IMG/VR virus record: IMGVR_UViG_3300005537_000002
Span: 113,638 to 177,637 of that record
Reading direction: 5' to 3' (one strand)
DNA from: a virus
Length of the DNA: 64,000 nucleotides
In this document: positions 2,761 to 54,505 of the stretch, one piece after another
How positions within the stretch are numbered: the first letter of the stretch is position 1
How the letters are laid out: each line of letters opens with the position of its first letter
Translations under genes and position numbers: made by a program
Notes under the pieces: generated by a model
Seen by the model: the letters and a program-made list of their open reading frames with translations, nothing else
What the model was told of the DNA's origin: nothing
Database searches by the model: none

Positions 2761-5673
2761 ATAATATATAAATGAACTTACAATACACGAAGGAGGGATC
2801 ATGCTACTACTACGCATACACGTACCAAGTAAAGAGGAGGGGGATCGGTTTCACCATACGGGGCCTACTGACAAGATGGTGGAAGGTGTACGACTATATG
2901 GCACGTTTGGTGTCATTACTAGAGAAGACAAACCCACTTCAGTGGGGTATCGCGGTGGTGGGAGTTACGAGTCTGACGATAGTTATGTAGGATCTGCAGA
3001 CATCACTTGCGACGACGACCAGATAGAGGCTACCTTCCAGTGGTTGCACTCCAACGGCTTTTGGAACGTAACGATAGAAGATGCTGGCTTCTATGTCGAA
3101 CATGATCAACGAGAGGCCGACCGGAAAGCACAATTGCAATGGAAGAAGGACCACGCAACTGAACTGTTGGACCAGATCGTTACGATAGCCGTAGCAGAAG
3201 AACACCAAGCAGTATACAGACTTCCTTACCGGTGCATCTACGAAGTTATGTTGAGAGCATCAGTTAACTTCTCGATTCCAGACGATGAGGACGATCCGAA
3301 CAGTTCAACACACCCACTTACTCCCGCGGAGTTCTTTGAGATGCTCGACGAAGTCGGTTTGTGTAACCGGTGGTTCCGACTAAGTAACGCATTGTACGAA
3401 GCCGACTGGCAACAGTATAAAGTAGCTGACATTAACCACTGGGTTGTATAGATATGGAGTCTAGCCGTGATGAGTGAACGCGAAGATGCCCGATCAGAGG
3501 AGTACGTAGAGTTACCCCTACCGAAGCGTATCTACTATCAAATGTTGGATGCTGTTTCTCGTGTTTTGAAAAGAGATATGACTGACACCGAGTGGTATGC
3601 AGCCGGTAGACCTATGCTTGCAGCAGAAGTCCCACCCAGACGTACTCGCAAGGTGTATAACACATCGTACTGCAGACATTGCAACCGAAATAAAGTTGCA
3701 AGTTGGTCAAAGACCAAACTCTGTAGGTCTTGTAGGCAGCTACACTACACCCGGGGTTGGCCTACCGAAGCTCCGAATACTGTAGAGGAGTCCAACGATG
3801 TTCAGTAGTAGGGATAACCGGTTGCACGCACGTTATATCAACGGTATACCCGTGGGTGAGTGGTTGATGCAACAGCCAGAGTGGGTAGAGGTGTTTGAGC
3901 GTATTAAGCCGACCTACTTAGGTATGACAGTGACTTGCCGCTATAATGGGTACGACGAGTCGACAAGTACTTACTACACTCGTAGGTCTACTGTCGTGGA
4001 TGTGGATATGGGGGCTCACGGTAATGGAGTCTGGTTGGTCGTTGCAAGTAGGGAGTTTGGTAAGTTAGTACGATTGCCGGGATATGCAATCGTCGTAAGG
4101 AATAGACTTATTAAGACTTACCTCGACGATTTGGATCGAGAGCGTAGAGCTAGGTACTTACTACGTTCGCAATTACATGTAGCTGTCGATGTACCAATGG
4201 ACTAGTCACTGTGCTAGAGGAGGTCAACTATGACACTGGAAGAACTGAACGAACGGTTACCGGAAGAGTTGAGAAGCCGTACGTTAGAGGGAATCAACGA
4301 ACGCATCATCAACCATCCAGCGTTGGGGGTTACATATTGTATCTCGCAAGGGCAATTGGACCGTACAATTGCGGGAGATGAGTGGTCAGAGTACGCGAGT
4401 AACTTAGTCTTAGCCGACATTCAGCAGGAGGTTGTGGCAGCTCGAATGCGTCTGTTCTTAGGAGACATCTTCTCGAAGATGGTTGAGTTCGGTGCCGAAC
4501 TTATCGAACTGGAAGCTGATAGATGGCGTCGGCTACTAGACTACAACGGAGACTGGACGAGTTCTCTCAACTATGATAACGATTGGTTTGCTGTGAGACT
4601 TAGTAAAGAGCTTGAAAAGAAGGGGTTACTATGAGTGACAATCCGTATGAGTTGCGTAGTTTTGATCGAGAAGCACTGATAAAGGCAGTGCAACCCGAAC
4701 ATCCGGATGAGTTTAGCGCGTATTACTACTTGATGGAGCAGGCAGGCTTGTTCCGATGGCTGGCATTCGAGACAGATGAAATGTCTACCGCAGCTCAGGA
4801 GCAGGTCGCGGAGACATTTGAGAGCGTTGCCGCAGCAAAAATCTGCTGCTTTGACTTTGACTCTGTGTCAACAGACTGCAACCTGCTACTAGTTTATACT
4901 GACACCCAGTTACATAGCGTACTAACGCACGCGTGTCAGTACTACGAAGAGGAGGTCGAGTAGACTACTATGCAGACCGGCGGATATGAAGGGTACACGC
5001 TACGCAAGTTCGATTACGTCGACGTACGTGAGATCACTGGCAGATACGAGATGAGCCTTGAGGATTGCCAAGCATATGTACAAGGGCATATACAAGTAGA
5101 CGTCACCATACCTTTTAGTGCAGAAGTCGTAGGTAAGGTAGGGGTAGTAAGAAAGGTTGCAGAAGTAATAGAGTACCTAAGGCCGGACCTTATATGCTTT
5201 CAGTACGTCGTAGTAGGAGGTGCCTTGTTAGTAATCGCCCATCGCAACGGATCGTTCGCTAGACAACTGCTACAAAGGTGTACGTATGAGTGACAGGCTA
5301 GACGACGAGTATGCTAAGGCTGTAGAAGACCTAGCCCGATCGGAGTTGCGAGGAGAGGTTACTGCAGAGGAGTTGGTGTGGCTGTACTCTAACCTACAGT
5401 GGTGGCGAGATGCTCTCCAACGCATTTACGAAGACCAAATGAGGTTTATCGAGTCGATGGCTCGATCGATGGAGTCCATCGGCAAGATAAAGAAGGGAAG
5501 TGACACGCAACGGACGTCACAGGAAGCTAGAGAACGGAAGTCTGCTCTCTTCAACCGTATTAAAAGTCGTAAGCGTTACCTGGAGTGTATCAAAGCACGT
5601 AAGTTGACGGTAGACAACTACATCTACATACGAAACCGACAAGCACAGATCTCGGACGCAGAAGGGGACGACA

Positions 5674-5994
5674 ATGGGTAGAGAAGACCCTAGAACAGAT
5701 CCTTATGAATCATATTATGGAGAAGAACCGTTTGACAAGACTCCCTATACTCGATCAGAGGAGTTTCAGTCGGCTCTGGATAGCTCTGACTGTAAGGGGG
5801 TTGAAGAGGCACACGCTTTAGGTTTAGCACAGTTGTATGAGCTGCAGGACGAAGTTAACGACGCTATTAGGATAGCTATTGCAAAGAAGGTGATGAAAGT
5901 ACTCGGTCGTATGTTGACTGAGGACGAGCAGGAAGATCTTAGAGACTGGTACGTGTCCGAGACTAGATGGCTGATAGGAGTTATAGAAAGCTAG
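5674..5994 (+). CDS. Hypothetical protein, paralogue of 6009-6308
   Basis: Shared MGR(E/D)..DP start and L.R.L(T/S)..E...(L/V)..W motif. Confidence 0.7.
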   Translation: MGREDPRTDPYESYYGEEPFDKTPYTRSEEFQSALDSSDCKGVEEAHALGLAQLYELQDEVNDAIRIAIAKKVMKVLGRMLTEDEQEDLRDWYVSETRWLIGVIES

Positions 5995-6008
5995 GAGGGA
6001 AATCGACA

Positions 6009-6308
6009 ATGGGTAGAGACATTGATCCGGACGAGTATGAGTACGAGCGACCTACGGATTTGGATGAGGCGTTAAAGACCGTAGGAGATCTACCGACAGT
6101 TAAGGATGCTGAAGAAGTGGCATTCGGTCGCCTAGCGGAAGCAGCTGGAGTAGCAGATGAGTATATAAGGGACGTAATAGTACGCGAACTGTCCGCCATG
6201 TTGCAACGTACACTGAGTAGGGAGGAGGTTGACGACGTAATGGAGTGGGTGCAGTCTAGTCTCCCGTCAGTTGGTTGGAGCATAGTTAGCAGAAGAGACG
6301 GAGTATAG
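6009..6308 (+). CDS. Hypothetical protein, paralogue of 5674-5994
   Basis: ATG at 6009 after GGAGG; LQRTLSREEVDDVMEW. Confidence 0.7.
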   Translation: MGRDIDPDEYEYERPTDLDEALKTVGDLPTVKDAEEVAFGRLAEAAGVADEYIRDVIVRELSAMLQRTLSREEVDDVMEWVQSSLPSVGWSIVSRRDGV

Positions 6309-7274
6309 CCATGATGAGGGTGAGTGAGTTGTTACACTCACTACAAGCTCTAAAAGAGGACGAACAGTTCTCTACGCTATATCCACTTATGTTAGGTATT
6401 AGCGGACCGTATAGCTTCCAGACTAGAAGAGGGCGACGACAGTACTACACGACACTGCAGGGCATAGCTGACATAGCAGACGACGACACTGTGCTAGGCC
6501 ACAAAACTGGAGATTTCTTTAGCGAGGCAGATAGAGAGTCCGCCGGCGAGTACGAGATCGGCATCGAGCGGTTGGTGTATATTATAGGTAATATGGTACC
6601 CAACGCTGAAGATGCTATGACCGTGTCTGAAGCCGAGCGTAAGTTAGCACAGCTGTGTAAGTACGGTTTAGGGAACGCTGGCGTGGTATTGATACTGGAC
6701 TGTGACGAGGACGTACCTTGTACGGAGGTTGCGTCAGTGGCAGTAAGTAATGGTCGAGTAGAGCTAGTTTCGACTGGAGCTACCAGTTGGTGTCACATCG
6801 GCTTACAGAACTGGTCGAGGTTTCAGAGGAGGATGTAAGAGTATATGTCACACTACGATGATTAAGGAGAAGTATGTCGTATAATAACAGTCGAGGACCT
6901 AGGAGAATACCTCTGACATGGTTTGAGTTGAAATCAATCACTCCTCAACCTCTATTACATAAGGGTACAGTATATGCACAACAGTTAACTGGTACACACT
7001 TCGATCCTGAGAGATGCTCAACTCAAGCATGGCGTGAGTGGGCTTATGATGCCATGCTTGTCGGCATTCGAAGAGCCTTTTGCGAGGAGCTGATTGAACG
7101 CTTACAGAAAGTTGCACTAGAGTACACTACTCAAACACACCAGCACATTAGTGCTTTCCAAGTACTGTATAGTGTCGGGAACGACAACTTGTTCCCGGAT
7201 AACTTAGGAGTCGACCTAGATAGGGACATTGGCGACAACATCTGGCGTCGAGTATCCCGACCTGACTAGGTCCA

Positions 7275-7314
7275 CAAGAGGCCGAAAGCTATTATACTTT
7301 CGGCCTCTTGTTTT
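7275..7314 (+). terminator. Intrinsic terminator-like hairpin overlapping the next promoter -35
   Basis: CAAGAGGCCGAAAG / CTTTCGGCCTCTTG stem followed by TTTT. Confidence 0.6.
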
Positions 7315-7337
7315 CGATTGGGTGAATATTTTATAAT
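7308..7337 (+). promoter_or_regulatory. sigma70-type promoter (cassette family)
   Basis: TTGTTT-18-TATAAT. Confidence 0.8.
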
Positions 7338-7384
7338 ATATTATATAAATATAATTCTTTCACACCTAACGAAAGGGGTAGCTA

Positions 7385-10300
7385 ATGAATACACTAGTTG
7401 GTACAGTTACGGACATCTCTCCGCGGAGGCTTAGGCTTTCACTCATTCGCGGCGGTGGACCTATCGGTACGCCATTGGTTGTAGTCGAGATGTCCGTAGA
7501 GGACCCCTACCGATCTTACTTTGGAGTGAGTTCACGGCAGGAGTTCTGGGGTAGCCGATGGGATGAGATTGCAGCCCCACAAGATATTCAGGTCGGTACG
7601 CGAGTGCGTATCGGTCTCAACCCCATCGGTATCCCGATGGACATTCGAAAGGAGGCACTGAGTGAGACAAACACCATCGACCCCCGAGTTCTTTGATCAG
7701 TGGGTACAGAGCTTTGCTAGGCGTGGAGAGCGGCCACGACACTGGAACGTTCCACCGGAGCATCCGCGTCTAGTAGAGTTATGCACTCTGCTCGGAACAG
7801 AGGTGAGTGATATAGCGGTCATTCACAGTATACAGTCAGAACCACCGGAGGAGTGTCGCACATCAAAAAGTGGGCGGAGGTACTCAATGCAAATTGGGTC
7901 TCGTGTGACATGGAAGATGGGGTATGACTTCCGAACGGCTGCTCCATACGCCTTCGTATGGCTTGATGGAGAGCAGGTCGTCTACAGATGGCCACAACAA
8001 GGCCAGTCATCACACTGGCTAGATTAAATGCTAGTTTATGTTGTTTAGTAGGGAGAACCAACTTGAGAGAGGACGAGCTAAAAGCTCTATACGACGAACT
8101 GGTAGGCGTCGCTAAGTTCTCAGTCATGAGAGCGTTGCTAGACGTAGCGGATAACAACGGAAGTAGATGGAGTGAGGACCTAGCAGACACCTGCTACTCG
8201 ATGACGGAGCAAGAGGCTGAAGGATTAGCACAGGTGTTTGTCGAGGATCCGGTTGGTGACATGCTAGTCTACTTCACGGACGAGCTTAGACACCTGATAA
8301 GGAAATATACCCACAAACCAGTCGAGGTAGTTGAGCGTGAAGGCTTTACTATCGGAGACCACATGGCAGTGGACGGTAGCGTAGAGGTACGCTACTATAC
8401 CATTGCTGGACCAGGGGTGTACACGAAGTCTTCAGCTGGTTTACAGCACTGCCTCGACGTGTTACGAGCACAGCCAGACCTCACTGTGCTACCAAACCGA
8501 AATGGGATTTATCAGGCCTATGTCAGTTGCAGTCTGATACAACGACCCTCACTAGACGCCCTGCGGAGCTATATCGGAGGCATACTTGTTGAGGCGGGCA
8601 TCCAGCCACTACAGACAAGTATCGTCTTGCAGTTTGGAGGAGAGCCGTATGAATAAAGACCAGTTTACAGCATACGTTGAGTCGTTACCTGGGAAGTTTG
8701 TACTCGCAGTTGCAGAGCGTATTACAAACGGCGAGTGCGGTCTTTATGAGAGATTCGAGGTGCACAAGACGCTAACGTACGCCATCGTGTGTAATGACTT
8801 ACCTCATTGGGTGGATAAGTATATATTGGACTCCGAGCATCCCATCGAGTTTCCATACACTGGCGTCCACGAAGACTGGTGGTTGGTGCTCTACAACGCC
8901 TTTAACCGAGAGGCTCAAGTAGTTATAGCGGACAAAGCGATAGAGCACATGGGAGATGTGCTTAAGGAGTTCATGGAGGCTGTGCGTAACAATCTAGCGC
9001 CTCACTTCGAAGGGGAGTTCTACGAAGACCCGAACGATTTCTACAACATACTAGAGAAGTCGATGGATAGTAAAGCGTTCCAAGTGTACATGCCGAACAT
9101 CGCGGCTAAGAAGGAATTCACGATATGAGTACGTGGTCTGGACTAACGGTACTCGATGAGGAGACGCAATACCTCATCGAGTACGTAGAAGCGTTACTAG
9201 GGGAGCTGCGGTATACTCGTAGTCAGGTTGAGTACGTAACTGAAGCTGGTTTCTCAGTCCGTAGGGTACTATTAGAAGGGGAGCACTACCCTAGAGGCTC
9301 TTGGTGCTATGAGATACGGTACGAGATTCCTGAAGCGGACGTAGTAGCACACCCCAGCCGTATTGGATTCCGTCGAGGTACTAAGTTGTGGAAAGTCCAG
9401 TTGGATCATCACACCGACCAGCAAATGATCAAGCAGCATTATGTCAGTCGGTATGCGAGAACCATTAACCTATGGCTCTCTCACTATAAAGCGTATGAGT
9501 TCGTCGCCATAGACGACGTTAGTAGCTTACCAGAACCCGTATGTAGAGTTGAGTTCGTGGACGACTACCCAAAACTGGAGACGTATTGGGGGGTTACTAA
9601 CGAACGTCTGAAGTCTTACTGGCTGCGGTTCGCATTTAGTCATTGGAAGCTCATTAGAACACAGTTACATGAGTCCGAGGGGTTTACCATTTGCAAGACG
9701 CTAGTCGGTACTGTACCCGGATACGTTATTGGAGTAGATTATCCATCGTCCGCTAAGGATACTAGCATCTCTCTATACTATTATGATCCGAACGCGGACG
9801 TAGACGAGATTCAAGCGGAATCTGCTAAGTTAGCCAGAAGTTTACACGAGGTAGGAGAGGGTATCTACGTCCGTACGAACTTGATGGGCATATCTCCGTA
9901 TGCCCATATTCGAGTCTTCTTAACCGACTGACAAGGAGGATCTATGACAGTAGACCCAGATCGAGAGTGGGACGACGAGTTCGATCCACGCAACCTACAT
10001 CAAGTACGAGAGGTGATCTTAGACGCACTGTCGTTTAGAGTCACTCAGAACTCTGCCCGTAAGTTATACCCTAATGTATACAACTGGCTGTGTACGTATG
10101 CTTCGTCCATGAGTAACGTCCAGCACTCACCCGACGATAGGATTCAGTCCTTTGACTTGTACAACAGAGTCCGTTGGTACGGAGAGGAAGATTTGAGCTC
10201 TCCGACGCGGGCTGTCACTGACAACGGACTACAACCTGTGCTACCTGGATTCGAACCTCCACAGTCAAGCCCAAGACGTTATCATATTACTATCGAAGTA

Positions 10301-34927: not shown

Positions 34928-34972
34928 TCACCTGTGCTAACCTAGACCGCTTGGCCCGGTTGTTTGTACATC

Positions 34973-35002
34973 TTGTAAACAACCGGGCGTTTATATTATA
35001 AT
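34973..35002 (+). promoter_or_regulatory. sigma70-type promoter (cassette family)
   Basis: TTGTAA-18-TATAAT; the -35 lies within a GCCCGGTTGTTT/AAACAACCGGGC hairpin. Confidence 0.8.
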
Positions 35003-35076
35003 ATTATTAATAAATATAAAATTTATTACCCCCACGGACGTTCCGGAAGGGTACTAGCACACGAGGAGATACCACA

Positions 35077-38436: not shown

Positions 38437-38610
38437 CCGACAGTAGACATGAGTATGTATACTGTCGAAGCTAGTTAGGTAGAACGCAGACTCTAGCAAG
38501 TTCGTGATAGCATAGTAGAGTGCATACCTCTCTATACTTGCGTAGAACGGTCGAGTACGACATGTACTCGACCGTTTGTGTTGGTCAGATCGCACGGTAG
38601 AACGTGATAG

Positions 38611-38785
38611 CCGTAGACTGTTGGAGGTTGCATGGCCGTAGTCCCGTAGACCGAACGGATGCGTGTTGCCCGTAGTCCGTTCCCGGTTGGGGGTGGCCGG
38701 TCGTACGTACGTGACGGTCAGGTCGGTAAGGGGGTCACCGGGGACGCCCGTAGGCAGTAACGGCCGTAGACGAACTGGCCCGTAG
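38611..38785 (+). repeat. Seven CCGTAG direct repeats
   Basis: Copies at 38611, 38636, 38644, 38670, 38748, 38764 and 38780 in non-coding DNA. Confidence 0.85.
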
Positions 38786-38795
38786 GACTTTCCAA

Positions 38796-38839
38796 GGGGG
38801 CCTTGTCCATGGGGGTAAGGGGGTGTTTAGCCCAGGGGG
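38796..38839 (+). other. Four G5 tracts, potential G-quadruplex
   Basis: GGGGG-N10-GGGGG-N3-GGGGG-N11-GGGGG. Confidence 0.6.
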
Positions 38840-38841
38840 TC

Positions 38842-39000
38842 AAATTTCACCCTTCACAAACTAAAAATTCACACCGCCGCCCCCACTAAATCCCACCTTC
38901 ACAAAAATAAACTTCAGGTTTCACAACCCTAAAACTTTACCTTCGCCAACCACAAATTTACACTCAGTCAACTCAAATTTTACCAACCTAAAACTTTTAT
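38842..39000 (+). repeat. Phased A-tract array (AAA(C/T)TT-like units, ~22-bp period)
   Basis: A-runs end at 38844, 38867, 38890, 38911, 38934, 38956, 38977 and 38993; the strand is nearly G-free. Confidence 0.8.
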
Positions 39001-39228
39001 CGCTTGTTGCCTGGTTAGGTCGCTGTTTTGTGGCTTATAAGGAACTGCTTCCAGTGAACACGTTCACTAGTGGCTGTACTGCGGGCCAGCTTCCTGGCAG
39101 AAGGCCAGCTTACGCTAGCATTCAGGCGTCGTAGCTCGTTACGGAGAGGGTAGTAACGAAACGTTAGCGCTAGCCCACGAACTTCTACGAAGTGTTAGCA
39201 AATTGGGCAAAACTGTAACGTATTTTCC

Positions 39229-39257
39229 TTGACATCCGTGTATTGGCATGGTATACT
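39229..39257 (+). promoter_or_regulatory. Near-consensus sigma70/sigmaA promoter with extended -10
   Basis: TTGACA-17-(TGn)TATACT. Confidence 0.85.
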
Positions 39258-39855
39258 CCTTGTGTAGGGTGAGGGAGTGAGGAAACGGGTTACACAGTGT
39301 AACCCTCCTACAATCCAGGTACACCCACAAAGGAGATTTCATGGCTAGCTTAAACATCACTGCACAAAATGTTGACTCACAAGCACGCGACAAAGCGTTA
39401 AAGCTCGCGCAACAGTTGAACGTCACACTACACGGCTTTCCAACAGGGAAGGCACCTATGCTGGCAGTCATTGAGCGTGCTGGAGAAAAGCAGTGTGATG
39501 TGTACTACTCTGAGAGCCAATCACCACAAGGCATGTGTCACATCGCCGCAAGGTCAACGGGCAAGGGACCGTCAAGCAGCAACGCAAACGCAAACGGCCC
39601 ATTCAACGCCCGTGAAGTGTCGGAGCAAGTAGCTTTCCTGTTCACACGACACTATATGAACTTGCGCGTCGGAACGCCAGGACACATTACTAACCCACAA
39701 GAGACGGTAGCCAATGCCGATGGTACGGTTACGTTGAGACTGCACAACGGTCAAGCCTTTACGATCTCTGTCACTGCTGTTAAGCCTGTTACTGTCACTG
39801 AGGTTAGCCCGCTTCTTGCCAAGACTGCCAACGCTAAGTAACTCACCTGAGACAG

Positions 39856-39871
39856 TGTTTCACATGAAACA
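39856..39871. promoter_or_regulatory. parS: parS-like site 1
   Basis: TGTTTCACATGAAACA, 15/16 match to consensus TGTTTCACGTGAAACA; the palindrome extends to TGAGACAG/CTGTCTCA. Confidence 0.65.
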
Positions 39872-40281
39872 CTGTCTCATACTTCAAAGAAGGAGATTTC
39901 ACCATGTCAAGGCTGTCTAAGCTCATGGCGCAAGAGGCATTGCTCTCTGACGACGTACTGTTGACTTCGCTCGTTGCGCTTGCCGACCTATGTATGCCTA
40001 TGCCTATCGCAAAGCTTACCGACGTGCAGCAGAAAAGACTGCTCAAGATTGGCTGTACCTTTGACTTGACCGTACAGTTGACACCGTACAAGGTACACGC
40101 TCGTCTAGCGTTCGATAACTCTGAGTGCGCGTACACGCTGTATCGTTGCTCTCATCGTCAAGAGTGCAAGTTTGAACAGGTTGAACTAGCTTCAACGAGC
40201 TACCACTTGGCTGAACTGATACAGGACAACATCGATCTAGTACGACTCATGCACTTGACTGTACTCACTATCCGCTAGTTA

Positions 40282-40297
40282 TGTTTCACATGAAACA
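40282..40297. promoter_or_regulatory. parS: parS-like site 2
   Basis: Identical 16-mer, intergenic, 426 bp from site 1. Confidence 0.65.
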
Positions 40298-41662
40298 CCC
40301 AATACTTAGAAAGAAGGATCTACCATCGTGACTACTACAACCAACCAACCTGCTACCCGTTCACTGATGTCAATCTTGCGCTCGTACGGCTACACGCGTG
40401 AGACAGCGTGTGACATCCCTACTGAGACGTTACGCGGTATAGTCGATGTACACATGTACCCATGTGAGTACCTTGTAGAAATGGCTGATACGCCGTTTCC
40501 AGTTGTCGAGTCCCTTCTGTATATGGGCTATGCCTTACAGTGTACGATTGAGCGCTACATCGACACGGTACACTGTGAGCGTATAGTCGCGCTTGACGGT
40601 CAGGTACACGTATTGGGAGTCGAACAGTCTCGACACTCCTTTACAGAGATAGTAGACCTTGCGTACAGCTTCCCTACACTGTCAGACCTTGCACTAGAGT
40701 ACAGTACCGACCCCATAGTATGCGGTATCCTGATCGACTCAACCACTTATCCGTACAGTGAGGTGCAACCATGCGCATAGTTGCCCAACGACCAACTGAC
40801 ACGCCTTCTAAGTTGAGACAGGCGCACATCACACTACGACGCCTGTACCTGACATCGCTCGTCGTGTGTCGTGTGTCTGGCGCTATCGTAGAGGTACTAC
40901 GACTAGCACGCTACCGTATTGTTACAGCGTGGATCGACTCAGCAGAATAAGGAGTTACCTCAATGGAGAGACGATTTTCACTATGGCCCGTTGGCGTAGA
41001 CATGCATACCCTTGTACCTATGATTGCGCTATTCTTTGTACTACTGGCATACGCCCTACACCCACGTACAGACGAGCGTTACAGTTTTGATGCGTTCTAC
41101 AATCGGTTGACCCCTACAACTCAGGATCAAGTAGGCTATTGCCCACCTGAGAATGTGCCTACTGGTATGGTTGTACACTGTGCCAACACTGGCGCTAACC
41201 CTACTGTACAACAAAGTGACTTGTGGTCTATGTGGGATGAGTGGAAACTGTGTACACACTATCAGGACAGTTTCGCGTGTGCATCGTTGCAGCAATAGTA
41301 GAATGGCCCTCCCTATGGCTGAGGTGGTGGTATGGTAGAGGTCTGAGTCGATCAGTAGTGCAATGGCTGATCGACTCAGCGTACAGGAGCCACTAGCAGA
41401 GTGTTTCGTATAGCCAAGCCAAGATGAACTGGTGCGACCCTGGATAGTTTCTAGCCCTAGTGCAATCGCTTAAACAGCGTTGCACTAGGGCTACAGGCGT
41501 TTTAAGTTTTAGTTGAGTAAGGGAGCGGCGATGAAATGGTCCCGAAGCGCCCCCTGGGCAAAACGCAGCATGACTCTCACTCCACTCCGCCTTTTGTAGC
41601 TAGCGATTTCCCCTGCCAATGTGTAAGCCAACGTTGCTGACGTAAGGGTCACCAGCCGCCTC

Positions 41663-42190: not shown

Positions 42191-42940
42191 ATGCGTTTGT
42201 TTATGCTACCTTCGAGTGGCGACTTTTGCTCTAAGCACCTAGTTATCGAACACGCTAGTACGCACTTGTGTAGCAGACTGTTTCAACGCGGTAAGAGGTT
42301 TGACACCTACCGTGGTCGCAACTTACTACAACTACACGGTTTGGAGGACTACCACGACACGCTAGTAGCAGAAATGGAACGTCGTGGTATGCGACATCGC
42401 AGTCCTTTCCCTGAAGGGCTGCAGTACCCAAACGTTGGAACTGTCGATACTAAGCAGTCTAGTATCGAACTAGGTGTGATGTGCGATGAGTGTCGTGTAC
42501 GACTGGAACTGAACATGAACACAGGTGAGTTATTAACTGCGTTTCGACGCCTGCTAGAGGAACGTAACTCACTGGCTGATGAGCACACGTTAGTATTGTG
42601 GCAGTTGGATCAAGCGTTACAAAGCGTTGAACCGATTGTCCGTCAGTACGACCCAACTGAACTTGAGACTATGGTCCGTTGGGCCGAACACATTCACCTG
42701 AAAGAGACCACAGAGCGAATTCAGCTAACTAACAAGTCTGAAGAGGTTCGGTGGCTCGCTGCTAACATCGCTGCCATTTACGGTATGCTGTCAACTCGAG
42801 CGACTCAAGGCTTGAAACTCGCTGAAAGTACAGGTAGAGACTACGTAGACACCGTAGTTGAAGACCTGCAGGTTATGTTCGGGCCAGAAGAAGACGACAG
42901 TGACGGCGACGGTAACACAGGCAACCCCAAGACGAACTAA
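42191..42940 (+). CDS. Pyrimidine-dimer glycosylase/endonuclease V-like domain fused to a helical C-terminal domain
   Basis: MRLF..C.KHLVIEH..H...HDTLVAEMERRGMRHRSP..CDECR matches the short DenV-like family pattern. Confidence 0.7.
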   Translation: MRLFMLPSSGDFCSKHLVIEHASTHLCSRLFQRGKRFDTYRGRNLLQLHGLEDYHDTLVAEMERRGMRHRSPFPEGLQYPNVGTVDTKQSSIELGVMCDECRVRLELNMNTGELLTAFRRLLEERNSLADEHTLVLWQLDQALQSVEPIVRQYDPTELETMVRWAEHIHLKETTERIQLTNKSEEVRWLAANIAAIYGMLSTRATQGLKLAESTGRDYVDTVVEDLQVMFGPEEDDSDGDGNTGNPKTN

Positions 42941-51543: not shown

Positions 51544-51712
51544 TCCGTAGTGGGGTAGCGACCTGCTACGATTCAGTAGATGCCAGTCGCAGTGGTCTTG
51601 TGGAATCTCCGTCTGCGGCGAAGCATTTGTTGACCTTCTACTAAGTACACGTGCTCCACAACCTTTTACTGTATGGCAGTGTATGAGAGCAGGTATTACT
51701 TAGCGGAAGCGT

Positions 51713-51782
51713 AGCGAGGAGAGCCGGTGCTCCGGGAGGTCTCATAAGCCTCCCTTGGCTAGTTCAACCCTAGCCCTCGCCA
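51713..51782 (+). tRNA. tRNA-Met(CAU), possibly initiator-like
   Basis: Loop CT-CAT-AA; T-arm GCTAG-TTCAACC-CTAGC; 1:72 mismatch; very short D-loop; no CCA. Confidence 0.7.
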
Positions 51783-51794
51783 TTATGGAGACCC

Positions 51795-51823
51795 TTGATT
51801 TTAAGAGTTTAGTATTATATAAT
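51795..51823 (+). promoter_or_regulatory. Promoter within the tRNA array
   Basis: TTGATT-17-TATAAT. Confidence 0.7.
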
Positions 51824-51904
51824 TAATACAAGGAGTTATGTAAATGAGTGTATGTGTCCATACCTTTCTTTGTGGAGAAAGCCTCAATTATTTACATAAC
51901 GCTT

Positions 51905-51976
51905 CCGAATGAAGTGCAGGGGTTGCACACTCGCCCTGGGAGCGAGAAGTCGTTGGTTCGAATCCAACCATTCGGA
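51905..51976 (+). tRNA. tRNA-Pro(UGG), non-canonical C33 and A8
   Basis: CTCGC-CCTGGGA-GCGAG anticodon arm; full cloverleaf. Confidence 0.8.
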
Positions 51977-52080
51977 CCGAGAAGGCTCTAGTGATTGCAC
52001 ATCACTTAAACTCAAATTTACCTGTGAGGGGGTAACTTAGAGGATAGAGCACTTCTCTATTTCATTCAGTCACGAAGTTG

Positions 52081-52156
52081 GCTAGTATAACTCAATTGGT
52101 AGAGTAGCGCTCCTGTAAAGCGCCTGTTGAGAGTTCGAGTCTCTCTGCTAGCTCCA
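52081..52156 (+). tRNA. tRNA-Thr(UGU), non-canonical C33
   Basis: GCGCT-CCTGTAA-AGCGC; encoded CCA. Confidence 0.85.
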
Positions 52157-52560
52157 AGACCTCTCGGGAAGGTCTTGCGATACTCTATGGAAGAGGAGTT
52201 GCTTCCATAGAGTACTTGATACACTTTGCCCTGTGAAGCCCTACTAATAAGCGTTGCTTCTCGCCGGACGCAACGGTATTGGTAGTACCTACTGAGCGAG
52301 TTGTATCAAGTCTTATGTGAGTCGACTGGCGTCTCCCTGGTATCGACAAGTACTCAGCTGGACCTCTGAACAGTCGACTCACATAAGTATTCGGTCCCGT
52401 CACGTCTAGGCTTTGTAGAACCCGTTGCATCAGTGCTACAAAGTTGTGCGGGTTGCAGAAGTCAGCAGTAGCGTTCTTTACTTTGCTTCGACCTCAAGTA
52501 AAGGTCGCCATCCACTGCTGACTCCCGAGACTATTTCGTTGTACCCTAACCGTACGAGCG
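52157..52560 (+). ncRNA. Candidate large structured RNA
   Basis: Perfect stems of 13, 10, 17, 9 and 8 bp, some nested; no RBS-supported plus-strand ORF. Confidence 0.45.
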
Positions 52561-52561
52561 T

Positions 52562-52633
52562 ACAAACTTAGCTCACTGGTAGAGCAATTGCTTTCGGTGC
52601 AATGGGTTACTGGTTCAAGTCCAGTAGTTTACC
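52562..52633 (+). tRNA. tRNA-Arg(UCG), acceptor stem degenerate
   Basis: ATTGC-TTTCGGT-GCAAT; good D and T arms; only 5 acceptor pairs. Confidence 0.6.
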
Positions 52634-52663
52634 TTAGCTCTTACAACTCGTACAGCGAAATAC

Positions 52664-52739
52664 GCTAGAGTAACTCAATTGGTAGAGTGCTTGTTTTCCA
52701 AACAAGCGGTTGAGGGTTCAAGTCCCTTCTCTAGCTCCA
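52664..52739 (+). tRNA. tRNA-Gly(UCC)
   Basis: CTTGT-TTTCCAA-ACAAG; U73; CCA. Confidence 0.9.
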
Positions 52740-52815
52740 CGGTACTTAGGAGATGAGGTACCGTGACAGTGTCGCGAAAGTGCGTGAGAGTATACGGAGC
52801 TCTCACGCACTTTGC

Positions 52816-52896
52816 AGAGTCTTTAGCTTAAAAGGTAAAGCACTACTCGAACGGGGGTGTCTGAGTAAGGATGTGGTTCGATTCCACAAGGCTCTA
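52816..52896 (+). tRNA. tRNA-like cloverleaf with a 14-nt anticodon loop
   Basis: Acceptor, D and T arms intact; TACTC/GAGTA stem encloses GAACGGGGGTGTCT. Confidence 0.5.
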
Positions 52897-53069
52897 TCGT
52901 AGATCGCGTCGGCACTAGGCACGCCGACGAGTCCGTTCCAGGATAATGACGCGATCTACGACTTTGATTAGTGTGAGAAGCTAATCAAAGTCGGGACTAG
53001 TTTACACTTGGTCATACTGAACTGGATGAGTCTCTCTTAAGCATGATGGAGCTATAACTAGTCCCACTA

Positions 53070-53154
53070 GGGAGTGAGGGTAGCACTATGATAACGTTTG
53101 TTTCCAGGTTGCAAGCGCTCGTAGGGTGCAGTTCGAATCTGCACGCTTCCACCA
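53070..53154 (+). ncRNA. tRNA-like element with an Ala-type acceptor (G3-U70, A73, CCA)
   Basis: GGGAGTG/CGCTTCC-A-CCA and canonical T-arm; no canonical D or anticodon arm. Confidence 0.5.
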
Positions 53155-53234
53155 GGAGTAGCGGAGTCCATCTCTTGCGACTTTCTGACTTGGGGAATAT
53201 GGGGATCAACGCGCAAGCATAGATCCTCTCGCTT

Positions 53235-53307
53235 GCCAGTGTGGTGCAACGGCAGACACCTATGGTTTAGGCCCATAGCATTAAGGGTTCGATTCCCTTC
53301 ACTGGCA
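53235..53307 (+). tRNA. tRNA-Leu(UAG) with a short variable loop
   Basis: TATGG-TTTAGGC-CCATA; 5-nt variable region; A73. Confidence 0.85.
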
Positions 53308-53374
53308 TTCCTTTGAGGAACTCCGCGCCTTCAAAGGAAATCTTCCGCTTCAGTGCTTTACAACTGAATAAGGT

Positions 53375-53444
53375 CTGTGAAGTCGTACAACCGGTAGTAC
53401 CAGCTTAGGACAGGTTGATGTAGGTTCGAATCCTACTTTCGCAA
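53375..53444 (+). pseudogene. Degenerate tRNA-like element
   Basis: D-arm GTAC/GTAC and T-arm GTAGG-TTCGAAT-CCTAC; anticodon/variable region 3-4 nt short. Confidence 0.4.
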
Positions 53445-53847
53445 TGAGAGGCTGACTACATTCAATTTCGGGAGTGTAGTGTGTCGGAATGAATTGTGGT
53501 TGGTCTTTCTCACGGGAGTTGCGGTCCGTAGGGAGAGGACACCGTTCTGAGTACCGGGAATGAGCAAGAACATTCTGTCGGCTCCAGGAGAGGACACTGT
53601 AGTTCGTAGGTGACTCCTGACGCCACCAAAGCAAGTTGGTCCATTGGGTTGTTGCTTGCTTGCGGAAAGGATGTACCGAAAGACTATAGCAGACTCAACG
53701 GAGACTGCGTAGTAGGGTATGCGGTCACGCGGAGAAGTGAGTTCGAATCTCACCAACTTCCATCACTAAGGGATGAGTTGCCTGTCGACCTTAGTGACGA
53801 CTTTCTAGGGGTAGTGTCGTATCCGGTCTCAATAACGACACTACTTC

Positions 53848-53921
53848 GTCCGACTAGCTTAACAAGGAAGAGCGCTTCACTCCAAATGAAGCAGATGAGG
53901 GTTCGAGTCCTTCGTCGGGCG
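53848..53921 (+). tRNA. tRNA-Trp(CCA)
   Basis: CTTCA-CTCCAAA-TGAAG; full cloverleaf. Confidence 0.9.
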
Positions 53922-54036
53922 TTAGTGTAGGGTTAGCTTCTTTCCTTCTAACCTACACTATAAAGGTCATCGATCCTTTCGCGGTGACTTACTAGCTACA
54001 CGAGGACGTAAAGATGTTTTACGTCCTTCACTTTTC

Positions 54037-54112
54037 GGTCTTGTAGCTCAACGGTAGAGAGCACCGACCTTATAAGTCGAAGATAGTGGTTCAACTCCAC
54101 TCGAGACTACCA
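54037..54112 (+). tRNA. tRNA-Ile(UAU)
   Basis: Loop CT-TAT-AA; A73; encoded CCA. Confidence 0.85.
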
Positions 54113-54136
54113 AAAACAAACAGAGGAGAGTTAGTA

Positions 54137-54442
54137 GTGCGTATCTATTGTGAAGACGGTAAGTTGTTTCTCGCTATCAACGACAGTACATTCTTCCACA
54201 CTATTGAGGAGTGGAGTCAATTCTTTATTAAGTGTAATTGGTTCGACTTCCATCTATGGCAGGCATACCTAATGTGGGATATCTGCGTTCCAGGTGTAGA
54301 AGCGGAATTTATTCTATTAGGGTTGGGAGTTCGCTTTCGAATGAACTTCGATTGGGAAGGAAGCGAGATTGGAGACCGACTAGAAGAACTTCGTAGGTCT
54401 CGGGAGCCCGATCCGTGTGAGGATGAATATGAGTTGTCTTAG
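54137..54442 (+). CDS. Hypothetical protein between tRNAs
   Basis: GAGGAG RBS, GTG start; stop overlaps the 5' end of tRNA-Phe. Confidence 0.6.
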   Translation: MRIYCEDGKLFLAINDSTFFHTIEEWSQFFIKCNWFDFHLWQAYLMWDICVPGVEAEFILLGLGVRFRMNFDWEGSEIGDRLEELRRSREPDPCEDEYELS

Positions 54443-54505
54443 CTCAGTAGGTAGAGCGCCACACTGAAAATGTGGGTGTCACTGGTTCGAGTCCAGTAGG
54501 CAACA
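54433..54505 (+). tRNA. tRNA-Phe(GAA)
   Basis: CCACA-CTGAAAA-TGTGG; full cloverleaf. Confidence 0.92.

Follow-up and report, generated by a model that had tools for sequence, protein, structure and literature searches.

Whether a phage that encodes no partition system of its own can carry sites addressed by the chromosome segregation machinery of its host is the question raised by two short, nearly palindromic elements in a viral genome. The DNA analyzed here, referred to as the window, is a stretch of 64,000 nucleotides that forms the last 64 kb of a 177,637-bp IMG/VR phage record. Two copies of the 16-mer TGTTTCACATGAAACA are found in it, closely resembling parS, the bacterial centromere site at which ParB is loaded. 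Based on an examination of the complete record, of a related phage, and of bacterial chromosomes carrying the same sequence, the reading favored with moderate confidence is that the two elements are working host-type parS sites, on which the ParB protein of the host would nucleate and from which it would spread as in phage phi29, with an additional role at the RNA level for site 1. The evidence for this reading, together with the alternatives that have to be weighed against it, is discussed below.

The Phage and Its Genome

The phage is large, uncultured, derived from soil, and lytic-looking. Its genome has a GC content of 48%, with almost all large open reading frames (ORFs) carried by the + strand. 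Among its products are a family-A DNA polymerase, helicases, a QueC-like enzyme, and a tail protein; a search of the window and of the remaining genome for a tyrosine integrase gave no match. The two ends of the record share a 110-bp repeat that looks like an assembly overlap. No relative at the DNA level was found among isolate phages, and the DNA polymerase shows at most 36% identity to any isolate record. The terL product is 47-65% identical to those of four IMG/VR fragments of 10-20 kb, which are too short to reach the parS-like region.

Several other features of the genome were recorded. Ten tRNA genes (Met, Pro, Thr, Arg, Gly, Phe x2, Leu, Trp, and Ile) are clustered at window positions 51712-54505, and a 249-aa ORF at 42191-42940 contains an N-terminal pyrimidine-dimer DNA glycosylase domain (Pyr_excise, T4 endonuclease V type; E = 1e-5). 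At least ten strong promoter cassettes belonging to one family are distributed over window positions 2716-59080 (e.g., 2728-2764, 7305-7341, and 34970-35006), each composed of CTCTTGTTTTC or CTTGTAAAC, a spacer of about 18 nt, TATAAT, and an AT-rich tail; at 34954-34988, the -35 box lies within a 15-bp hairpin, forming a terminator-promoter cassette. Among 4-bp palindromes, CATG is the most under-represented across the whole genome (458 observed vs 611 expected, z = -6.2), followed by GCGC and CGCG, a scarcity that may reflect restriction-site avoidance.

Organization of the Two parS-like Sites

A sequence-only reading of the window had described two identical intergenic copies of the 16-mer, 426 bp apart and one base removed from the parS consensus, each just upstream of a ribosome-binding site. 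This description was confirmed: the sites share the same orientation, their start-to-start distance is 426 bp, and site 1 separates genes 1 and 2 while site 2 separates genes 2 and 3 (Table 1). Each site ends about 30 nt 5' of a start codon and 13-15 nt 5' of the Shine-Dalgarno sequence AAGAAGGA.

Table 1. Coordinates of the features at the locus, given as window positions except for the window itself
Feature	Position	Strand	Description
Window	113638-177637 of the record		Last 64 kb of the 177,637-bp IMG/VR phage record
Non-coding repeat block	38440..39340		~900 bp; CCGTAG repeats, G5 tracts, A/C-rich block
Sigma-70-type promoter (consensus match only)	39229..39257	+	TTGACA-17-TATACT with upstream TG; 11/12 consensus positions
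Gene 1	39341..39841	+	166 aa; no known family; conserved in the relative L257
Palindrome around site 1	39848..39879	+	32 nt; as RNA, 14-bp stem and 4-nt loop
parS-like site 1	39856..39871	+	TGTTTCACATGAAACA; 15/16 to consensus, central G>A
Cassette 1 downstream half	39872..39906	+	ATACTT, AAGAAGGA (Shine-Dalgarno), ATG
Gene 2	39904..40278	+	124 aa; no known family; between sites 1 and 2
parS-like site 2	40282..40297	+	Same 16-mer as site 1; no extended stem
Cassette 2 downstream half	40298..40330	+	ATACTT, AAGAAGGA (Shine-Dalgarno), GTG
Gene 3	40328..40780	+	150 aa; no known family

The 16-mer consists of 7-bp arms around a central CA and is thus an imperfect palindrome. Relative to the chromosomal parS consensus TGTTNCACGTGAAACA, the central CG reads CA in both phage sites, a change that keeps one half-site perfect (GTGAAACA, minus strand). 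A chance origin is ruled out by mismatch counts across the genome: only these two copies of TGTTTCACATGAAACA occur at 0-1 mismatch within 177,637 bp, the chance expectation for a genome of this length being about 0.004 sites within one mismatch of parS (our own arithmetic). When up to four mismatches from the consensus are allowed, the genome count equals the level of shuffled genomes, save for sites 1 and 2 and a third element at genome position 5958. The latter, TGTTTCTCGAGAAACA, is a symmetric two-mismatch palindrome lying inside an ORF (5618-6355); it is embedded in a 20-bp perfect palindrome, GTTGTTTCTCGAGAAACAAC, at genome positions 5955-5976, with outer arms as in parS and TCGA at its center, and is probably coincidental. 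Half-sites are not in excess genome-wide, GTTTCAC being present in 9 forward and 2 reverse copies vs about 11 expected per strand.

The gaps holding the two sites share a common build consisting of TGTTTCACATGAAACAC, 3-6 nt, ATACTT, 2-3 nt, AAGAAGGA, and the start codon, and the combination ATACTT-N(1-4)-AAGAAGGA occurs genome-wide only in these two gaps. Tandem gene duplication was rejected as the source of the two cassettes, the proteins encoded downstream not being paralogues.

Absence of Partition Genes

The claim that the window holds neither parA nor parB was borne out and can be extended to the entire genome: ParB_N and ParA-type ATPase models (PF02195, PF13614, and PF01656) had no match anywhere in the 177,637-bp record, although control models did. 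The whole-genome scan thus gave no phage ParB, and it gave no further copies of the site. The HTH_ParB model gave a 14-bit sub-threshold, generic helix-turn-helix match only, in a distant ORF with multiple such motifs. The parS-like sites are thus orphans, the phage having no parA and parB of its own.

Among other IMG/VR contigs, orphan or own-system parS clusters seem to be common. One unrelated phage contig of 177,819 bp (L268, IMGVR_UViG_3300021387_000299) carries two perfect parS sites at 6728 and 6763, 35 bp apart, and two others (L270 and L265) carry four parS-like sites each.

Conservation in a Related Phage

In a collection of 1.84 billion representative proteins, gene 3 has one distant homologue, P0003, besides the cluster of the window itself. 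The contigs encoding it, L257 and L256, overlap, come from two metagenome samples, and are syntenic with positions 39341-40780 of the window. All three genes are matched there at 44-61% identity in tblastx segments, with 50% identity of gene 1 to L257:119-244 (tblastx), 44% identity of gene 2 to L257:426-797 (full-length alignment), and 34% identity of gene 3 to P0003 (full-length alignment). Every intergenic gap of L257 contains the perfect consensus TGTTTCACGTGAAACA, at positions 385, 806, and 1257, one of them beside an extra gene. The orthologue of site 1 is L257:385 and that of site 2 is L257:806, both matching the consensus at 16/16 positions; the latter shows 84% blastn identity over 38 nt including the Shine-Dalgarno cassette, and TACTT(T)AGAAAGAAGGA is kept in the gap orthologous to cassette 2. 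All five cassettes, two in the phage and three in L257, follow the order of parS, 10-15 nt, AAGAAGG, 7-9 nt, and start codon, whereas the intergenic DNA outside the cassettes has diverged between the two phages.

The retention of a 16-bp element at orthologous positions despite this divergence argues that the sites are under selection and of true parS type. For a conserved palindrome of arbitrary sequence, agreement with parS at each of the 8 independent positions has a probability of about 1.5e-5 (our own arithmetic), so that coincidence is not a reasonable explanation for the perfect identity in L257. On this comparison, the sites appear to be kept by selection in the related phages, with the evidence covering two phage lineages, the present phage and the one relative recovered. 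Since the cassettes within each phage look homogenized, the two copies within a genome do not count as independent evidence.

The extra gene in L257, encoding 130 aa and absent from the phage, lies between two parS cassettes (L257:806-1260), and L257 sites 2 and 3 are followed by 21 identical nucleotides (GAAAGAAGGAAAACCGCTATG), as would be expected if repeated cassettes mediate gene insertion and loss. Other searches for relatives gave no addition to this comparison: queries of IMG/VR with gene 1, gene 2, the alignment of gene 2, and P0003 found no match; the 14 contigs matched by a DNA pattern of parS plus Shine-Dalgarno sequence were all unrelated, as were the viral and bacterial contigs with the exact 16-mer among the matches listed; and a weak homologue (L258) was neither syntenic nor provided with a site.

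Hairpin at Site 1 and Its Possible Role in the RNA

The sequence-only reading had overlooked a long conserved hairpin, of which site 1 forms the tip. The surrounding palindrome lies directly 3' of the stop codon of gene 1, with a folding energy of -24.6 kcal/mol (z = -4.2). The orthologue of site 1 also possesses a long palindrome, forming a 13-bp stem of -24.2 kcal/mol, in which the outer arms differ, being TGAGACAG/CTGTCTCA in the phage vs TGCGCAG/CTGCGCA in L257, and the third L257 site forms a stem of 12-13 bp (-21.3 kcal/mol) including a G-U pair. Site 2 and its orthologue have their own short stem only and fold no better than shuffled sequence. When the five cassettes are aligned, the six inner pairs are invariant, and three of the five copies form the eight outer pairs, seven of which show changes on both sides; stem and covariation are thus present at site 1 and at L257 sites 1 and 3 and absent at site 2 and its orthologue. 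Because the outer pairs change on both sides, the outer stem behaves as a base-paired nucleic-acid structure, and because the inner pairs do not vary, the core resembles a sequence recognized by a protein. This pattern suggests that the site 1 hairpin is kept by compensatory changes and has an added RNA-level role.

The same observations can be read as indicating that the sites act on mRNA only, as intercistronic stem-loops that stabilize, pause, or process the early transcript, with the parS sequence representing captured host-origin ancestry or the target of an RNA-binding protein and with ParB uninvolved, an explanation that is considered unlikely. Strong stems with paired changes at site 1 and its orthologue fit it well, as do the G-U pair of the third L257 stem, workable only in the + strand RNA, the position of the G/A difference within the 4-nt loop, and the occupation of every gap of a co-directional operon by a cassette. 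However, site 2 and its orthologue keep the 16-mer while having no extended stem, and a pairing constraint alone should let the inner pairs covary, which they do not in any of the five copies. A 16/16 match to parS in three L257 copies would also be very unlikely for an arbitrary stem, no U-tract is present at any phage or L257 site, and Rfam returned nothing relevant. Under the favored reading of host-type parS sites with an RNA-level role added at site 1, the hairpin on the mRNA would serve as a 3' stabilizer, a pause, or a processing signal for gene 1.

Operon Context and the Question of a Phage Regulator

Genes 1-3 form a co-directional run of small genes to which no Pfam or PHROG family could be assigned. 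Their ESM Atlas and AlphaFold2 models are poor and uninformative, revealing no DNA-binding family or fold; that of gene 3 has a pLDDT of 66 and no fold match. The promoter preceding gene 1 is the best sigma-70-type match across 33.5-46 kb and is likely, from its sequence, to start the operon holding both sites. Just upstream of the operon lies a real non-coding repeat region (38440-39340), which could represent a genome end, a pac site, or an origin. Nowhere else in the genome is TTCAC clustered as densely as in this region (5 copies in 120 bp), which also contains GGTTTCACAA at 38917. The block further holds, at about 38548-38580, a hairpin resembling an intrinsic terminator, along with seven CCGTAG-type repeats and six G5 tracts, the G5 tracts being followed by a nearly G-free part with the TTCAC cluster and repeated CCTAAAACTTT.

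The location of both sites just upstream of a ribosome-binding site had led to the proposal that they are operators for a phage regulator. This proposal is weakened by the results at hand: no sigma-70-like promoter stands beside the sites, none of any promoter-like kind having been found between 39257 and 40560, the proximity to the ribosome-binding site is a property of the conserved cassette, and no DNA-binding protein is recognizable among the neighbors. An internal promoter with the palindrome as operator was also considered and rejected. The ATACT element might serve as a weak -10, yet its distance from the palindrome is not constant, differing by 4 bp from one site to the other; no -35/-10 pair is present, and the element is absent at two of the three L257 sites.

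A broader version of this idea, judged rather improbable, is that an early phage protein other than ParB binds the palindrome, autoregulating or roadblocking the operon and perhaps occupying the parS sites of the host to block the loading of ParB and SMC. It would be in keeping with the joint conservation of sites and neighboring genes in both phages, with the placement of each site just upstream of a gene, with the three neighbors of unassigned function, and with the generic helix-turn-helix proteins encoded elsewhere in the phage genome. Yet neither palindrome has a promoter-like site nearby, the three conserved neighbors show no DNA-binding family or fold as far as their poor models allow, and identity to the universal parS would require a convergent specificity. 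One of the helix-turn-helix proteins, a 271-aa product of genome positions 8712-9527, carries two generic motifs (HTH_28, HTH_20, Sigma70_r4-like).

The Central-A Form as a Natural parS Variant

The sequence-only reading had also proposed a host-type identity for the sites, which is now strongly supported by the perfect consensus at the orthologous gaps of L257 and by the occurrence of the A form in chromosomal clusters. Among the matches listed, 51 of 120 bacterial contigs with the exact A form contain another parS-like site within about 8 kb, 23 of these 51 holding the perfect consensus and 20 holding further A copies; among viral contigs, the corresponding number is 15 of the 119 listed. 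In Lentilactobacillus otakiensis, six A-type sites are located 10-45 kb from dnaA (C1:11730-46281), with a seventh on another contig, and no perfect consensus parS is present in the genome. In Chloroflexi bacterium OLB14, A sites at 4963 and 5687 are separated by 724 bp and lie 1-2 kb from dnaN, each just upstream of the Shine-Dalgarno sequence of a gene; a duplicate of the pair is found on a second contig, and no canonical copy was found in this genome. A Caldilineaceae chromosome carries one A site 11.6 kb from its sole canonical site. These clusters identify the central-A form as a parS variant that occurs naturally and appears to be used in real chromosomes. In the literature searched, neither a mention of the exact A-form 16-mer nor a description of a lineage-specific A-type parS variant was found. 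Several further contigs of Lactobacillaceae and Bifidobacterium bear the A form.

The effect of the central change on binding can be considered in light of published data. For ParBc1 of Burkholderia cenocepacia, positions 1/16 and 5/12 were the only ones at which symmetric changes were tolerated, and neither position 8 nor position 9 figures among the one-arm changes listed as tolerated (PMC5450999). A half-parS retained intermediate ParB binding (PMC5450999), and in Caulobacter parS sites one half (GTGAAA) is conserved and the other half variable (PMC5815017). The central CG being the most conserved feature of this centromere family, the sites of the phage may be weak. A further caveat on site recognition arises because the phage has a QueC-like gene: if its DNA contains 7-deazaguanine, the readout of G through the major groove could be compromised. 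A search of the phage for TGT/DpdA-type proteins gave no match.

The presence of the G>A change in both cassettes is most simply explained by homogenization, probably through gene conversion; L257 sites 2 and 3 likewise share 21 identical downstream nucleotides. The change could be neutral, mildly weakening, or an adaptation to a host with A-type parS. Restriction avoidance was rejected as its cause, CACGTG (25 observed, 32 expected) and ACGT not being avoided and the change itself creating CATG, the most avoided 4-bp palindrome of the genome. That the sites are decaying relics, ancestral parS inactivated by the G>A change and copied as a by-product of cassette duplication or gene conversion, is very improbable: the same change in both copies, flanking motifs shared within each genome (ATACTT ... 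AAGAAGGA in the phage and the 21 nt of L257) that suggest homogenization, and the poor tolerance of central changes by one tested ParB (PMC5450999) are in line with decay, but the other 15 positions are intact in both copies while neighboring intergenic DNA has diverged freely, and the A variant is the main chromosomal parS of some bacteria.

Candidate Host

The phage encodes an 82-aa ubiquitin-like protein whose homologues (33-43% identity) were found in 23 of 151 Chloroflexota genomes and in none of 151 Actinomycetota or 151 Bacillota genomes, which offers Chloroflexota as a lead for the host phylum. The G or A form of parS was present in 122 of 301 sampled Chloroflexota genomes vs 0 for the reversed control, nearly all with the G form and about six with an A copy; this tally includes one unpublished genome (G158) with one canonical site, and the conclusion stands without it. 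ParB_N was present in both of the two Chloroflexota genomes tested. A 297-aa cassette protein that was also searched for host identification had no homologues. Since the consensus parS is common to most bacterial phyla, the main conclusion is independent of the host phylum.

Proposed Mechanism

Each gap separating the first genes of the operon is filled by a cassette of about 45 bp with a parS core. According to the favored reading, a dimer of host ParB would nucleate on the sites, load as a CTP-dependent clamp, and spread over the surrounding phage DNA, with the result that the cell would handle the phage genome like origin-proximal host DNA. The phage DNA could then be tethered to, or partitioned with, the host origin, as phi29 DNA is with Spo0J; alternatively, ParB and SMC could be diverted from the host chromosome. 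The candidate effects of such loading are thus tethering or partition of a paused genome, entrapment in the spore or a daughter cell, titration of ParB and SMC, and a dampened early operon. The sites, their uniqueness in the genome, their conservation in L257, the natural use of the A variant, the lack of phage partition proteins, and the covariation of the hairpin were observed; binding of ParB, its loading as a clamp, and the effects listed here are inferred.

A more elaborate scheme, put forward with little confidence, assigns a dual use to the sites, namely ParB loading on the DNA and a hairpin on the mRNA. ParB clamps on the DNA that enters first would act as a sensor of the host state, silencing or roadblocking the early operon and tethering the genome near the host origin; a ParB-dependent deferred or carrier state, possibly with entrapment in a spore or daughter cell, would follow, and the G or A at the center would track the parS preference of different host lineages.

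Comparison with Known Systems

Hairpins processed by RNase III lie between the early genes of phage T7 and typically contain internal loops. The hairpin at site 1 resembles them as a strong intercistronic structure devoid of a U-tract, located after the first early gene and near the non-coding region that is a candidate genome end, but it differs in that its stem is a perfect 14-bp helix lacking such loops and in that only some of the gaps have one. In T4-type phages, small early genes are reportedly flanked by promoter/stem-loop cassettes (PeSL), described by Arbiol et al. in 2010. The likeness lies in short, repeated regulatory cassettes between small early genes of uncharacterized function; here, in contrast, the core of the cassette is a host centromere sequence, and no promoter is evident beside it.

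The parS of the chromosomal ParABS system is said to be TGTTNCACGTGAAACA, following Lin and Grossman in 1998 and Livny et al. in 2007. The phage sites agree with it at 15/16 positions with one half-site perfect, those of L257 agree at 16/16, and the variant itself is found in origin-proximal clusters; however, the phage sites are carried by a virus rather than lying near oriC, the replicon provides no cognate ParB, and the central CG is broken. The recognition of the central-A form as a probable chromosomal parS has a bearing on rules of ParB specificity that treat the central CG as fixed.

The closest parallel to the proposed mechanism is offered by the virulent Bacillus phages phi29 and Nf. 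Five parS sites of phi29 are used through the host protein Spo0J (PMC2731898), and in the work of Meijer et al. (2005), as summarized there, the host-type parS of phi29/Nf is bound by Spo0J/ParB and linked to entrapment of the phage genome in the spore (PMC2731898). In the literature searched, no experimental case after phi29/Nf was found in which a phage lacking partition genes uses host ParB. The present phage shares with them a lytic character, the absence of parA and parB, and the possession of more than one chromosomal-type parS site, the host ParB being exploited in the case of phi29/Nf. It differs in being an unrelated, uncultured soil phage of 177 kb with two sites only, both bearing the central G>A change, and in placing them within parS-plus-Shine-Dalgarno cassettes between its first early genes, one at the tip of a conserved hairpin. 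The device of phi29/Nf may thus also exist in an unrelated and very large soil phage, with comparative support for selection, and in an unusual build in which a centromere site is fused to the ribosome-binding cassette of early genes and, at one gap, to a conserved hairpin.
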